A stretch of DNA of 6,744 nucleotides from Lineavirus I22, in the sequence record NC_001332.1. One strand, written 5' to 3'. The notes under the pieces are model-generated. The model worked only from the letters and a program-made list of their open reading frames with translations. It ran no database searches and was not told the DNA's origin. Shown one piece after another: positions 1 to 6,744 of this stretch; the stretch's first letter is position 1, and the number at the start of each line of letters is the position of its first letter. Position numbers and translations under genes: made by a program.

Positions 1-984
1 AAGCTTCATCATTTCCCGCAGGTAGGCAGATATGCAAAACAATGTCGTGTTATGCGCATTGCAGACAAGCCCACTTTAGAGGATTTAGAGGCCATTGGTC
101 GCGGCAATCTTTCTTATGATGAATCAAAAAACGGCCTTATTGTTTTAGATGAGTGTGGCACGTGGTTTAATTCCCGCAACTGGAGTGATAAAAGTCGCCA
201 GCCTGTTATAGACTGGTTTTTACATGCCCGTAAATTAGGCTGGGATGTAATTTTTATTATTCAGGATATTTCCCTGATGGATAAGCAGGCACGCGAGGCT
301 TTAGCCGAACATGTTGTTTATTGCCGTCGATTAGATAAATTAAATATACCTATCATTGGTGGTTTAATTTCGGTTCTTTCAGGTGGTAGATTGCCATTAC
401 CGAAAGTTCACTTTGGTATTGTTAAATATGGTGATAATCCTCAGTCATTAACTGTAGATAAATGGATTTATACTGGTACAGATTTATATGCTGCTTACGA
501 TACTAAGCAGATATTTACCAGTGACCGTGAATTAAGCCCGCCATTCTGCCCCGTTTCGCCTTATTACACTCATGGCATATTTGCCGTTAAAAGGGATGCT
601 AAATATTATATGCGTATGACAAAAATCTATTTTAAGAAGATGAATCGTGTTTGGTTAATGGCTTCCTTTCTTGCTCTTGGTGCTGGCGTAGGGTTTTTTT
701 ATAAATCTCGCCAGATAAATGAGCAACTATCAAATATGCCTGTAGCGTCTGCTCAGGCTAATACCACTAAAACAGATCACACCATTGATGAATTGCCACG
801 ATTATCGATCAACTCATTTGCACAAATGGGTTATGATGTAAATGTAAGTTTTAAAGATGCAAAGGGAAAAATCTATTACTCATTTGATTTAATGAAATCT
901 GGTTATGCCTTAGATATTAAAGATTCCTGTCATATTACATTGCGTAAACGAAACTACATTCAGCAAGTTACTTGTGAAGGCTAA
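1..984 (+). CDS. I: Gene I protein (pI, Zot-like assembly ATPase), C-terminal part; continues in frame from 6631..6744 across the circular junction
   Basis: Frame 1 is open from position 1 (KLHHFPQVGRYAKQCRVMRIADKP...), so the ORF-track Met at 52 is internal. IADKPTLEDLEAIGRGNLSYDESKNGLIVLDECGTWFNSRNWSDKSRQPVIDWFLHARKLGWDVIFIIQD...AEHVVYCRRLD is near-collinear with Ff pI as I recall it. Hydrophobic membrane span VWLMASFLALGAGVGFFY. Stop TAA at 982-984. Confidence 0.9.
   Translation, partial: KLHHFPQVGRYAKQCRVMRIADKPTLEDLEAIGRGNLSYDESKNGLIVLDECGTWFNSRNWSDKSRQPVIDWFLHARKLGWDVIFIIQDISLMDKQAREALAEHVVYCRRLDKLNIPIIGGLISVLSGGRLPLPKVHFGIVKYGDNPQSLTVDKWIYTGTDLYAAYDTKQIFTSDRELSPPFCPVSPYYTHGIFAVKRDAKYYMRMTKIYFKKMNRVWLMASFLALGAGVGFFYKSRQINEQLSNMPVASAQANTTKTDHTIDELPRLSINSFAQMGYDVNVSFKDAKGKIYYSFDLMKSGYALDIKDSCHITLRKRNYIQQVTCEG
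610..984 (+). CDS. XI: pXI (I*), internal in-frame translation start within gene I
   Basis: In-frame ATG at 610 (MRMTKIYFKKMNRVW...) aligns with the Ff pXI start (MKLTKIYLKK...) just upstream of the membrane span. By analogy with Ff; the start is not verifiable from sequence alone. Confidence 0.45.
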   Translation: MRMTKIYFKKMNRVWLMASFLALGAGVGFFYKSRQINEQLSNMPVASAQANTTKTDHTIDELPRLSINSFAQMGYDVNVSFKDAKGKIYYSFDLMKSGYALDIKDSCHITLRKRNYIQQVTCEG

Positions 985-986
985 TT

Positions 987-2273
987 ATGAAAACTTTTTT
1001 TGCTAAATTCATCGTCGCTTTATTTGCTTTTACTTATTTCTCTGCATTCGCGGAGCCTGTTACTTTAAACAATTCTCCTGTGCGCTCATTCGTTCAATGG
1101 TATTCATCCAAAACAGGAAAATCAGTTATTGTTAACCCTGATGTTAAGGGGAATATCACCGTATTTAATGCTGATGTTAACAACGCAAATATTGATGACT
1201 TTTTTAAGTCTGTCCTTAATGCTAACGGCCTTGTAGTTGTCGCTGGTAATCCTGCCGTTGTTTCCACACCTTTAACTAAGCTCGCGTCGCAGCCGTCAAA
1301 TGAAGAAACCTATGATGATGAAAGTGACGGCGTAGCGTATGAGGCAGTACCGCAGTCGGCTGCGCCTGCTGTACCTGCCGATCTCACGGTACGTAATTTC
1401 AACGTGACGCGCGTTCGTTCTTCTGACGTTCTGCCGCTGGCTAAGATTTTCGTTGATTCAAATGGCGGCGGTAATGTCGTCGATTACCCAGGCAATAACA
1501 GTCTTGTTGTTTCCGGCTCAGCTCAGGTTATGCCTGCTTTATCCGATTTCATTACGTCAATTGATGTTGCCCGCGAACAGGTTCTGATTCAGTCCCTGAT
1601 GTTTGAAACCAGTGTTTCTAATGGCGTGGATCTTTCTTTTGCGCTGGCTCTAGCTTCTGGCGGTAAAGTTGCAGGCGGTTTTAATACCTCAGCTCTCGGC
1701 ACTGCTCTTTCTACTGCTGGCGGTAGCTTCGGTATCTTTAACGGTAACATTCTGGCGTTATCTCTCCAGGCTGTTCAGAGTGATTCTAACTCTAAGGTTA
1801 TCTCTACCCCTCGCATCCTCACGCAGTCCGGCCAGAGTGGTTATATTTCAGTTGGCCAGAATGTTCCTTTTGTGACAGGTAAAGTCACTGGCGAGGCTGC
1901 AAGCGTTAATAATCCTTTCCAGACAATCGAGCGCCGCGACGTAGGCGTATCACTAAAGGTAACGCCGGTTGTTATGGGAAATGGTCAGTTAGTTCTCACC
2001 ATCGATACTAAAGCCGACTCTCTCAGCAATCAGGCGATTGCCTCTGACATCATTACCAATCAGCGCCAGATACAAACCACCGTTCAGATTAAAGACGGTC
2101 AGACCCTGCTTTTAGGCGGCCTGATTAGCTCTAACCAGTTCGACAGCGATCGTTCTGTGCCTTTTATGTCGAAGATTCCTTTAATCGGCTGGCTTTTCCG
2201 CAGCCATTCAGACTCGAAAGATGATCGCACTATGTTCGTTTTGCTTACTGCTCACGTTATCAGGGCGCTTTGA
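987..2273 (+). CDS. IV: pIV secretin (outer-membrane phage export channel)
   Basis: 428 aa. Signal peptide MKTFFAKFIVALFAFTYFSAFA then EPV. Long collinear stretches match Ff pIV as recalled (SVIVNPDVKG, AGGSFGIFNG, SKVISTPRILTQSGQSGYISVGQNVPFVTGKVTGEAASVNNPFQTIERRDVG, QTLLLGGL, VPFMSKIPLIGWLF). SD GAAGG at 976-980, 6 nt before the ATG. Confidence 0.95.
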   Translation: MKTFFAKFIVALFAFTYFSAFAEPVTLNNSPVRSFVQWYSSKTGKSVIVNPDVKGNITVFNADVNNANIDDFFKSVLNANGLVVVAGNPAVVSTPLTKLASQPSNEETYDDESDGVAYEAVPQSAAPAVPADLTVRNFNVTRVRSSDVLPLAKIFVDSNGGGNVVDYPGNNSLVVSGSAQVMPALSDFITSIDVAREQVLIQSLMFETSVSNGVDLSFALALASGGKVAGGFNTSALGTALSTAGGSFGIFNGNILALSLQAVQSDSNSKVISTPRILTQSGQSGYISVGQNVPFVTGKVTGEAASVNNPFQTIERRDVGVSLKVTPVVMGNGQLVLTIDTKADSLSNQAIASDIITNQRQIQTTVQIKDGQTLLLGGLISSNQFDSDRSVPFMSKIPLIGWLFRSHSDSKDDRTMFVLLTAHVIRAL

Positions 2274-2278
2274 GGGTG

Positions 2279-2305
2279 CGGGGTAGGTGCGTTAGCCCTG
2301 CCCCG
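2279..2305 (+). other. GC-rich hairpin just after the gene IV stop; candidate packaging (morphogenetic) signal or part of it
   Basis: 5' arm CGGGGTAGG (2279-2287) pairs with 3' arm CCTGCCCCG (2297-2305): 9 bp including one G-T wobble, 9-nt loop. No T-run follows, so not a classic intrinsic terminator. In Ff the packaging hairpin sits at this position. Confidence 0.4.
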
Positions 2306-2353
2306 TATCCTCACAGCGTCCCCTGACCCGTATCATTCGCTTATCGCCGTATG
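2295..2353 (+). repeat. Iteron-like direct repeats CCCTG(C/A)CCCGTATC with a third partial copy GCCGTATG
   Basis: GCCCTGCCCCGTATCC (2295-2310) and CCCCTGACCCGTATCA (2320-2335) are 25 nt apart with one mismatch in the 14-nt core. CCGTAT recurs at 2347-2352 and ACGTAT at 2380-2385. Confidence 0.4.
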
Positions 2354-2596
2354 TGCTTCCCTGTCTTGTCCCTAAGGCTACGTATTGCCTCCCCGTTTAA
2401 ATCGTCAAGCTATAAATCGTGGGGGCCCCATCGCCCTGTTAAGCTGCCTTTTTTCCTGCGATCCTCCCGCCTCTCTGTTGTCTGACGGTCGCAGACGAAC
2501 AGGACGTTACAGCCATTGTTTTTCGTTCTGCTGGCTTCTTTTTTTGGGGGGTGTACTCTTGTTGCAAAATCGCAACGCAGCGGGGGTTAAATCATG

Positions 2597-2672
2597 CTGC
2601 ACGAAAGTCTCACTTTCGGGATTTTGGTTTTTGGATTTCTGCTGCGGAGTCAGGCGGGGCGGGGTGAACGTG
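2597..2672 (+). other. Nested inverted-repeat structure in a G-tract-rich segment; candidate ssDNA origin element (minus-strand priming site)
   Basis: CTGCACG (2597-2603) is complementary to CGTGCAG (2666-2672). Inner hairpin CGAAAGT-ctc-ACTTTCG (2602-2618). G-tracts at 2545-2550, 2582-2586 and 2655-2664. Functional assignment is inference. Confidence 0.3.
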
Positions 2673-2743
2673 CAGTGTATGTAATACTGCAACGTTTGTC
2701 TCAATCTGATACCTCTCTACTAAACGCCTCCTTTCTTTTTAAG

Positions 2744-2754
2744 CTCTTTAATCA
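2744..2754 (+). promoter_or_regulatory. Candidate plus-strand origin nick-site core (CTCTTTAATCA)
   Basis: Resembles the Ff pII nicking region TTCTTTAAT^AGTGG as I recall it (9 of 11 identical), in a T-rich context upstream of gene II. Hypothesis only. Confidence 0.25.
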
Positions 2755-3002
2755 TTTTCTTTTCTGCTAATTCTGTATAGTTTTCAATGACATAGTTTAA
2801 GTGAATCTGTCCATGTGACCTGTACGCCCGTACTTGTACTAATCCTGATCGCAGTATCACTCAGGTTTTTCTTTTTCTCGGTGGTGATACTGGCTGTTGT
2901 CCTAACTGGTTTTTTCATTTTATGCCTTTGAAAAATATAAAGTTTCTACCGAAAATAGGTTTTTAAGCGTAATCTTATTGTCAATAGATGTAAAAATTTT
3001 TG

Positions 3003-3030
3003 TTGCGCACGTTATTTTTCACGCTATCAT
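3003..3030 (+). promoter_or_regulatory. Candidate sigma70 promoter for gene II
   Basis: TTGCGC (3003-3008), 16-nt spacer, TATCAT (3025-3030), about 60 nt upstream of the gene II start in an AT-rich region. Imperfect hexamers. Confidence 0.3.
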
Positions 3031-3052
3031 GCCTGCATTGGATTTCATCTTG

Positions 3053-3070
3053 ATACGTGTATACACGTAT
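3053..3070. promoter_or_regulatory. 18-bp perfect palindrome ATACGTGTATACACGTAT in the gene II leader; candidate operator or RNA hairpin
   Basis: Self-complementary by inspection (core ACGTGTATACACGT, 3055-3068). Ends 9 nt before the SD (AGGG, 3080-3083) of gene II. Confidence 0.4.
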
Positions 3071-3090
3071 ACATCACTAAGGGAATGCGT

Positions 3091-4125
3091 ATGATTGATT
3101 GGGTTACAGCCGTCTTGCCTTGTCTGCATGTGCCTGTTGATGCTGGTCGCGTCCTCTCTGTTGCGCCGGATGGCTCTGTAGAATGGGAATCAGTAAAGTT
3201 TTCCCGCGTTACTGGCTCCTTTCAAAGCTCCATCAGTGTACGTTCGCAGGGTTCTGACGGTAATGGGAAAGCCACTCATTTATACGTTGATGGTAACCCG
3301 TCAAAGTGGTTGCAGGGTCATAATATCGTTGGAAGCGACGATCTCAACGGCCTTATGATTGCTTTTTACGCTCGTATGTTGTCACTACTCAATATACCTC
3401 ACCATCTAGAATCGTATCGTCAGGTGCTTTCTGGTCAGTACGAGCTAAAGCGCGTTGACATTAACTACATGTTTGAGCTTCCTACGCTCATTGATGTACG
3501 GTCATGGTTACATGCTGCTGAGTTCAAGGCTAAGACTCGTCACGGGCGCCCGGCAACTGCAAAGGGCACTCTGTACTTTGGTAAAAATTCTCGCCGTTGG
3601 TCTATTAAGGCTTACAGCAAATATGATGAAGTAAATTGCGGGAAAAAAGCTCATGGCGTTCCCGAAGAAATTAAGAAAACTGGCCTTGTTGAATGGTCTA
3701 AAAATAAATTACGTCTAGAATTAACATTACGCGCATTGCAGCTTACTGATATTAATTTAAACTTTGCTAAAAACTGGTCTACTGAAACTGCATATACTGT
3801 TTTTAAAGAATATATGGGGCGTATCGAAATGAGCGGAAATACTTTACTTACTGATACTCAAGTTATTAATTTACCGTCTGCGCTACGTATGACTTATGTG
3901 TGCTGGAAACAGGGCATTTGTGTAACAGATATGGTATCTCGCGCCACTTATTTTCGTCACCGCAAGGTTTTAAAAGAATTTGGTATTGATATTGCTGTTA
4001 CTGTTGATCGTGTTGATAATAGCAACGTTGTTCCGTTAATCCGTGTCTTAGAGGCTAAACCTGCTTCTATTCCTTCTCAATATGATAATTTAATATTTTC
4101 ATCTAATCGTGTATCAAGTTTCTAA
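3091..4125 (+). CDS. II: Gene II protein (rolling-circle replication initiator/nickase), divergent and shorter than Ff pII
   Basis: 344 aa from ATG 3091 (MIDWV..., compare Ff pII MIDMLV...). SD AGGG at 3080-3083 is 7 nt upstream; the ORF-track ATG at 3085 has no spacer. By-eye motif matches to Ff pII: SKWLQGHNIVGSDDL vs AKVLQGHNVFGTTDL, and NVVPLIRV vs NVVPLVRF near the C-terminus. The rest is poorly conserved; Ff pII is about 410 aa. Confidence 0.8.
   Translation: MIDWVTAVLPCLHVPVDAGRVLSVAPDGSVEWESVKFSRVTGSFQSSISVRSQGSDGNGKATHLYVDGNPSKWLQGHNIVGSDDLNGLMIAFYARMLSLLNIPHHLESYRQVLSGQYELKRVDINYMFELPTLIDVRSWLHAAEFKAKTRHGRPATAKGTLYFGKNSRRWSIKAYSKYDEVNCGKKAHGVPEEIKKTGLVEWSKNKLRLELTLRALQLTDINLNFAKNWSTETAYTVFKEYMGRIEMSGNTLLTDTQVINLPSALRMTYVCWKQGICVTDMVSRATYFRHRKVLKEFGIDIAVTVDRVDNSNVVPLIRVLEAKPASIPSQYDNLIFSSNRVSSF
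3829..4125 (+). CDS. X: pX, in-frame internal start within gene II (C-terminal domain product)
   Basis: In-frame ATGs at 3814 and 3829 (YMGRIEMSGN...) align with the Ff pX start (FEGDSMNIYDD). ATG 3829 has GGGG 7-12 nt upstream; 3814 is the alternative. By analogy only. Confidence 0.4.
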   Translation: MSGNTLLTDTQVINLPSALRMTYVCWKQGICVTDMVSRATYFRHRKVLKEFGIDIAVTVDRVDNSNVVPLIRVLEAKPASIPSQYDNLIFSSNRVSSF

Positions 4126-4135
4126 GGGGTTTTAA

Positions 4136-4462
4136 ATGCACTCAGGTATTCTTATTCGTGGTCGTATTCTCGGTTCTCGCACTGCAAACCGTGATAATAA
4201 TTCGCCGCAACATATTTTAGGCGTTGGCATTCAGAAAGCTGACGGTTTTGGCGGTACGACTCAGGATGTTGAGCAGGTTAAAATTCCTGACCAGCTTGTG
4301 CAAAGCGGCGTTGTTAATCAGATTAATTCGCTTATTGGCAAACTTTGCGAAGTACCGATTAATGTTCGTTCTTGGTCTATGAACGGCAAAAACGGCACTT
4401 CTTACACTCTGTCTTTTGAGTCCGGTATTCAGGAGATTGAAGAGCTGATTTATGTCAGATGA
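4136..4462 (+). CDS. Gene-V-position protein, putative ssDNA-binding protein; no recognisable similarity to Ff/IKe pV
   Basis: 108-aa ORF with SD AAGGGG (4124-4129) about 6 nt before the ATG, immediately after gene II and overlapping the gene VII start. Function inferred from synteny only; the sequence does not resemble Ff pV as I recall it. Confidence 0.6.
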   Translation: MHSGILIRGRILGSRTANRDNNSPQHILGVGIQKADGFGGTTQDVEQVKIPDQLVQSGVVNQINSLIGKLCEVPINVRSWSMNGKNGTSYTLSFESGIQEIEELIYVR

Positions 4463-6630: not shown

Positions 6631-6744
6631 ATGGCTGTTTATGTTGTTACCGGAAAATTAGGCGCAGGCAAGACGCTTGTAGCTGTATCGCGTATACAAA
6701 GGACTTTAGCTAAAGGTGGTATTGTTGCCACCAATCTAAATTTA
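6631..6744 (+). CDS. I: Gene I protein (pI), N-terminal 38 codons; continues at window position 1
   Basis: MAVYVVTGKLGAGKTLVAVSRIQ... contains the Walker A P-loop GKLGAGKT and matches the Ff pI N-terminus (MAVYFVTGKLGSGKTLVSV). Frame (6631+114=6745) joins frame 1 of the window start exactly. Confidence 0.9.
   Translation, partial: MAVYVVTGKLGAGKTLVAVSRIQRTLAKGGIVATNLNL

Follow-up and report, generated by a model that had tools for sequence, protein, structure and literature searches.

Gene I of the filamentous phage I2-2 probably contains a nested gene XI with an in-frame internal start

In the Ff filamentous phages (M13, f1 and fd) the protein pXI, or G11p, arises from gene I when translation begins in frame at the internal codon for Met241 (Rapoza & Webster 1995; Haigh & Webster 1999, cited in PMC5408679, PMC9228878). 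The short protein, which is devoid of the ATPase domain of the full-length product but retains the membrane anchor and the periplasmic tail, has been reported to be essential (PMC5408679, PMC9228878), and gp1 and gp11 co-purify in a ring-shaped complex of ~320 kDa (PMC5408679; PMC9228878). The M13 gp1-M241L variant makes no gp11, yet it fully complemented a gene I amber phage that still supplied gp11 (PMC5408679). Two periplasmic cysteines of the M13 protein, C332 and C347, equivalent to C348 and C363 in I2-2, are also essential and are possibly disulphide-bonded (PMC5408679). The internal start has been attributed to gene I ‘of most filamentous phages’, and I2-2 gp1 (P15418) was already aligned with its M13 counterpart in Supplementary Figure 1 of that report (PMC5408679). 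A nested open reading frame (ORF) was drawn likewise for Vibrio phage VFJ in a 2022 preprint. A sequence search of the PDB for a solved pI or pXI structure found none, and in the literature we found no experiment on pXI of either I2-2 or its relative IKe.

The 6,744-base window analysed here comprises the whole circular genome of I2-2 (Lineavirus I22), a filamentous phage specific for IncI pili. The data presented below make it highly probable that gene I of this phage specifies two proteins that share one reading frame, the 365-residue pI, starting at ATG 6631, and the 124-residue pXI, starting at ATG 610. ATG 610 corresponds to the start of the gene XI that is textbook knowledge for Ff-like inoviruses; the feature is ordinary, already known and expected in this phage family, and its earlier designation as established knowledge, which had been made from the sequence only, was appropriate. 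What is mildly new is that the Shine-Dalgarno (SD)-like element is displaced in the lineavirus/If1 lineage, and that elsewhere in the family an obligatory AGR codon marks the nested gene.

Gene I of I2-2 and the anatomy of the short frame

Among the records of the phage collection the window is closest to IKe, with 86% nucleotide identity across 49% of its length, and to the Erwinia PEar phages. I2-2 and IKe share the gene order II, V, VII, IX, VIII, III, VI, I, IV. At a threshold of at least 80% nucleotide identity the match to IKe is confined to the 49% of the window that extends from gene VII to the start of gene IV. Within 2274–4462 the replication module is unlike that of IKe, gene II encoding 346 residues in I2-2 (3085–4125) compared with 421 in IKe, and the intergenic region of I2-2 is also without a match to the IKe genome. 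This difference fits modular exchange among filamentous phages.

Gene I spans the circular junction of the record on the plus strand and its frame is intact across the record ends, since 6744 is 3 × 2248. The record was opened at a HindIII site (AAGCTT, 1–6) that lies inside gene I, which is why the gene is split between the two ends of the window. A linear ORF list consequently gives only a 310-residue fragment of gene I, from an internal ATG at position 52, which could mislead automatic annotation. The rejoined 365-residue translation matches CAA32519.1, NP_039622.1 and UniProt P15418 at every residue. The protein displays the architecture of the Zot family, comprising an N-terminal P-loop NTPase, a single transmembrane (TM) helix about two-thirds of the way along the chain and a periplasmic C-terminus with two cysteines. 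Residues 2–155 match the Pfam Zot family (PF05707, E 8e-38), and both the Walker A residues (G8, K14 and T15) and the Walker B residues (D88 and E89) are invariant in the pI alignment described below.

Within gene I the codons at 610–612 and 616–618, which specify Met242 and Met244, respectively, are both in frame with the plus-strand ORF that terminates at TAA 982–984, as the sequence-only reading had stated; codons 252 (nt 640) and 258 (nt 658) are further in-frame ATGs. That reading had also placed a basic stretch immediately in front of a TM segment, and the composition of residues 242–254 (Table 1) bears this out. Four positions in the stretch, T245, I247, Y248 and R254, are 94–97% conserved among the homologues. 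The adjoining segment, residues 255–272, is the sole strongly hydrophobic segment of I2-2 pI, and the hydrophobicity maximum of the whole protein coincides with residues 255–273, VWLMASFLALGAGVGFFYK (Kyte-Doolittle scale, 19-residue window). The C-terminal domain that follows (residues 273–365) may, by homology, contact the pIV secretin. With 10 methionines in the 365 residues of I2-2 pI, the chance of finding one within ~13 codons of the TM segment is about one in three. ATG 610 taken alone is thus unremarkable, and the case for it rests on the comparison across phages.

Table 1. Features of gene I, the candidate gene XI and their surroundings in the I2-2 window
Feature	Position	Strand	Description
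Gene I, 5' part	6631..6744	+	pI codons 1–38, Walker A GKLGAGKT; product is P15418
Gene I, remainder	1..984	+	Codons 39–365, TAA stop at 982–984
SD-like AAGGGAT	591..597	+	Codons K235-R236-D237, R236 being AGG; ends 12 nt 5' of ATG 610
A/U-rich spacer	598..609	+	GCTAAATATTAT, between the SD-like element and ATG 610; low predicted structure
Candidate pXI frame	610..984	+	124 codons plus TAA 982–984; start aligns with M13 Met241
Basic cytoplasmic N-terminus of pXI	610..648	+	Residues 242–254, MRMTKIYFKKMNR; five K/R, no D/E
Second in-frame ATG (Met244)	616..618	+	Possible minor or alternative start, 122-residue product; SD-like element 18 nt away
Single TM segment	649..702	+	Residues 255–272, VWLMASFLALGAGVGFFY; counterpart of M13 anchor 254–271 (PMC9228878)
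Periplasmic domain	703..981	+	Residues 273–365 (93 residues), with invariant Cys348 (928–930) and Cys363 (973–975)
Gene IV	987..2273	+	428-residue ORF, putative secretin and partner of pI/pXI; order as in IKe, M13 and If1

The ribosome-binding site of gene IV, GAAGG (976–980), sits within the final codons of gene I and of the nested frame. Further upstream, at ~892–939 (gene I codons 336–351), synonymous diversity in the I2-2 clade falls to its minimum for gene I, the sequence GGTTAT...GATATTAAAGATGC being nearly invariant. This dip, which is 50–95 nt 5' of the gene IV start, could be a signal for gene IV expression; it could equally be an artefact of the many near-identical UPphi-like sequences sampled. 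A search of the ~892–939 region found no promoter-like match.

Conservation of the internal start codon among pI homologues

The pI proteins of I2-2, IKe, PEar1, M13, FfLavender, If1, fs2, VFJ, Vaf1 and two Vibrio cyclitrophicus phages were aligned, and IMG/VR was scanned for relatives of pI, which contributed a further 80 loci. Removal of truncated and duplicate entries yielded 77 distinct proteins that are 44–100% identical to I2-2 pI. In the alignment of the named phages the Met242 column is invariant and pairs with Met241 of M13, in accord with the earlier proposal that the position of the start is conserved relative to Ff; in both phages the methionine is 13 residues ahead of the TM segment. 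The GenBank record of FfLavender, an Ff phage, contains a gene XI coding sequence (CDS) that begins at the codon aligned with Met242. Of the 77 homologues, 76 have ATG at this codon and the remaining one has GTG, so that every sequence has a start codon here, whereas the flanking columns are conserved at 55–78% only. The single exception to ATG, locus L047 (IMGVR_UViG_2740892187_000001), has GTG (Val) at this column and an ATG two codons further on. Positional homology with Ff and the universal retention of a start codon support the view, advanced in the sequence-only reading, that the two-protein pI/pXI system has probably been retained in I2-2.

That reading had named both ATG 610 and ATG 616. 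Only the former is conserved. The Met244 column (nt 616) is occupied by Met in 40, Leu in 30 and Ile in 7 of the 77 proteins, the pattern of a hydrophobic position rather than of a conserved start; the Met252 column (nt 640) contains Met in just 7. The conservation of Met242 appears to reflect initiation, since M13 pI tolerates M241L when gp11 is supplied, and we consider that its role as a start codon, rather than the structure of pI, is what preserves the residue.

Two of the homologous loci merit separate comment. Ralstonia phage 1 NP-2014 encodes a pI homologue of 276 residues (901–1731 of the locus) that stops before the TM and periplasmic parts and has Glu at the internal-start column. 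A separate downstream gene encoding a pXI-like protein was considered for this phage, and discounted as the next ORF does not encode a membrane protein; Ralstonia phage 1 NP-2014 appears to be without any region equivalent to pXI. In the RefSeq record of Vibrio phage VFJ (NC_021562.1) the CDS of the pI homologue begins at position 376 of the locus and so loses Walker A. The annotated start looks to be too far downstream, because the frame from position 295 (295–1380; MASVYFVTGKLGSGKS...) can be aligned from end to end with fs2 and the other pI proteins.

Translation signals upstream of the internal start and alternative readings

A search for an SD sequence before ATG 610, 616 and 640 found none in the canonical −15 to −5 window. 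The claim for ATG 610 therefore rests on comparative evidence and not on an I2-2 ribosome-binding site. The element AAGGGAT, located further upstream (Table 1), is predicted to form a duplex with the 3' end of 16S rRNA at −5.1 kcal/mol, although an equally good SD match within −20 to −4 is available to 12% of in-frame positions in gene I, so that the element is weak evidence by itself. It includes an AGG codon, and AGG accounts for only 3 of the 72 arginine codons in the I2-2 genome. AAGGGAT (591–597) is a likely candidate for the ribosome-binding element of pXI, with non-canonical spacing. The pXI site of M13 is also weak (UAGGU, −3.1 kcal/mol) and, as this site is proven, a weak SD is no argument against the use of the I2-2 site.

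The sequence around the start is predicted to be largely unstructured. The 50 nt centred on ATG 610 have a predicted folding energy of −2.2 kcal/mol, whereas the mean for the gene is −7.0 kcal/mol, and they rank within the 7% of gene I that has the least structure. Low structure at the start is clear in I2-2, M13 and the IMG/VR locus L012, but over all 77 it amounts to no more than a tendency (median at the 26th percentile), and for this reason it is not counted as strong evidence. The codons for Tyr240 and Tyr241 are almost invariably TAT TAT in the I2-2 clade, and synonymous diversity in codons 232–242 falls in the lowest 6% of windows in that clade; as only four of these codons are informative, the dip is at most supportive.

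A signal in codon choice is evident in the wider family. The codon three before the conserved ATG specifies Arg in 42 of the 77 homologues, and in all 42 the codon is AGR (38 AGG and 4 AGA), which puts GAGG ~9 nt before the ATG. By comparison AGR makes up 17% of the arginine codons in these 77 genes, and in no other arginine column does it exceed 44%. The restriction is seen in IMG/VR loci L047–L088 (for example, gcGAGGttctacATG), which are from genomes that otherwise use CGN. Judged from these sequences, the obligatory AGR is the codon-choice footprint of an SD embedded in the coding sequence.

In the group comprising I2-2, IKe, PEar, the UPphi-like prophages and If1 the codon at −3 specifies Lys or Asn instead of Arg. 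The arginine three codons further upstream (Arg236 in I2-2) is encoded by AGR in 18 of 22 sequences of the I2-2/IKe/If1 group, compared with 2 of 23 in the other group. With phylogeny ignored this gives a Fisher value of 7e-7, which overstates the independence of the observations because the contrast is essentially between two clades. A tentative explanation, which we regard as possible but doubtful, is that the ribosome-binding site of pXI moved in the Lineavirus/If1 lineage (I2-2, IKe, PEar, UPphi-like prophages and If1) from the canonical location at about −9, where the obligatory AGR codon of the Vibrio-type clade enforces GAGG, to about −16, such that initiation would proceed across a long, 12-nt A/U-rich spacer, possibly by an S1-dependent or standby-type route, and that the tandem ATGs 610 and 616 may even give rise to two isoforms. 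If such a shift did occur, the ratio of pI to pXI would differ from that in Ff.

I2-2 probably makes the short protein, and from ATG 610 rather than ATG 616. As I2-2 has no canonically spaced SD, we infer both the efficiency and the mechanism of initiation, the proposed route being through the distal AAGGGAT and the unstructured A/U-rich spacer. The second ATG nevertheless requires consideration. It is in frame, only 6 nt past ATG 610 in the same unstructured, A/U-rich context, and occurs throughout the IKe/I2-2/PEar group and in just over half of all the homologues (40/77). Without an SD at canonical spacing the selection of a start from the two codons may be loose, so that pXI could be synthesized mainly or partly from Met244, either as a 122-residue protein or as a mixture of 124- and 122-residue forms, and the only homologue with GTG at the conserved codon does have an ATG at the second position. 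We consider significant use of ATG 616 unlikely, however, as the SD-like element is 18 nt distant from it and the residue is Leu or Ile in 37 of the 77 homologues, among them M13, where the start at Met241 is proven. A very improbable reading is that the methionine has a structural role in pI, in a juxtamembrane helix, and that I2-2 makes no functional internal product. The missing canonical SD before 610 would be consistent with this proposal, as would the high conservation of the nearby T245, I247, Y248 and R254 for reasons that concern the protein. It is difficult to reconcile, however, with the tolerance of M241L by M13 pI (PMC5408679), or with the observation that Met242 is replaced in the 77 homologues only by a GTG-encoded Val and never by Leu or Ile, both of which are freely accepted two codons later. 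The obligatory upstream AGR in the other clades is, in addition, a signal at the level of the nucleotide and not of the protein, and the SD from which M13 starts pXI is itself weak.

The possibility that pXI has its own transcript is scarcely credible. A promoter-like match on the plus strand, TTGCCG-17 nt-TATTAT (581–609), abuts ATG 610 and, given that a canonical SD is missing, could be envisaged to direct transcription from ~616, with a leaderless mRNA beginning at ATG 616. Such matches are at chance level in the scanned region, two being found against 3.2 ± 2.0 expected in shuffled sequences, and a separate promoter ending at 609 was rejected on these grounds. Furthermore, IKe has a degraded version of the −35 match (TTTCTG/TTCTGT), the −10 TATTAT is merely the two Tyr codons, and internal initiation on gene I mRNA accounts for pXI in Ff (PMC5408679, PMC9228878). 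Translational coupling through a mini-ORF was also considered. The frame in question (596–619, plus strand, +2 relative to gene I; ATG CTA AAT ATT ATA TGC GTA TGA) comprises seven codons from ATG 596 to TGA 617–619, its stop overlapping ATG 616 as ATGA. It was ruled out as a coupling device as its ATG is derived from the Asp-Ala codons, it is absent in relatives that have other residues there, and it has no usable SD spacing. The mini-ORF looks to be a by-product of the pI coding sequence, arising from the Asp-Ala and Met-Thr codons.

Internal initiation at ATG 610, the preferred reading, leads to the following model. Ribosomes that start at ATG 6631 would synthesize pI, with its Zot-type ATPase domain, basic juxtamembrane stretch, single TM helix and periplasmic tail, while internal ribosome binding and a start at codon 242 would generate pXI, which would consist only of the basic stretch, the helix and the tail. 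By homology with M13 and f1, the two proteins would form a joint ring in the inner membrane. [quoted passage not shown]

Annotation and comparison with known systems

The main relevance of these observations is to annotation. Gene XI is unannotated in the RefSeq records of IKe, PEar and M13, and I2-2 gene XI is likewise without a CDS; the protein collections searched list no 124-, 122- or 114-residue product as a separate protein. The comparative evidence would give I2-2, IKe and PEar 11 encoded proteins, the same number as Ff. A nested gene XI in new inovirus genomes may be recognized by a simple marker, namely the obligatory AGR codon or, in lineaviruses, the distal AAGGG. In the engineering or complementation of gene I in IncI-specific filamentous phages, mutations 5' of codon 242 would be expected to spare pXI while those 3' of it would hit both proteins.

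Within the lineaviruses and their relatives the feature is closely preserved. The pI proteins of IKe and Erwinia PEar are 85–87% identical to that of I2-2, and both phages are identical to I2-2 in the MRMTKIYFKKMNR stretch, the AAGGGAT element, the spacer and both ATGs. The pXI part of the protein diverges faster than the ATPase part, as it is 65% identical between I2-2 and IKe compared with 85% for the whole of pI, the corresponding values for I2-2 and M13 being 30% and 50%.

I2-2 and Ff agree in the alignment column of the start and in its 13-residue distance from the TM helix, of which each protein has only one. The two also share the motif M(R/K)xTKIYxKK..R and a pair of invariant cysteines in the periplasmic tail, and in both genomes gene IV comes directly downstream. 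The I2-2 product, at 124 residues, is longer than the 108-residue Ff protein, having ~4 more residues in the TM region and ~12 more in the periplasmic linker. In Ff the sequence AGGT is located ~7 nt upstream of the start, whereas in I2-2 AAGGGAT is 12 nt upstream, and genes I and IV, which overlap in Ff, are 2 nt apart in I2-2. The pXI product is proven in Ff, while in I2-2 it is deduced from the comparison. The same nested principle is displayed by gene X within gene II of Ff and IKe (annotated in IKe and PEar), where the product is again the C-terminal part of a larger protein, although gene X is a different gene and functions in the control of replication.
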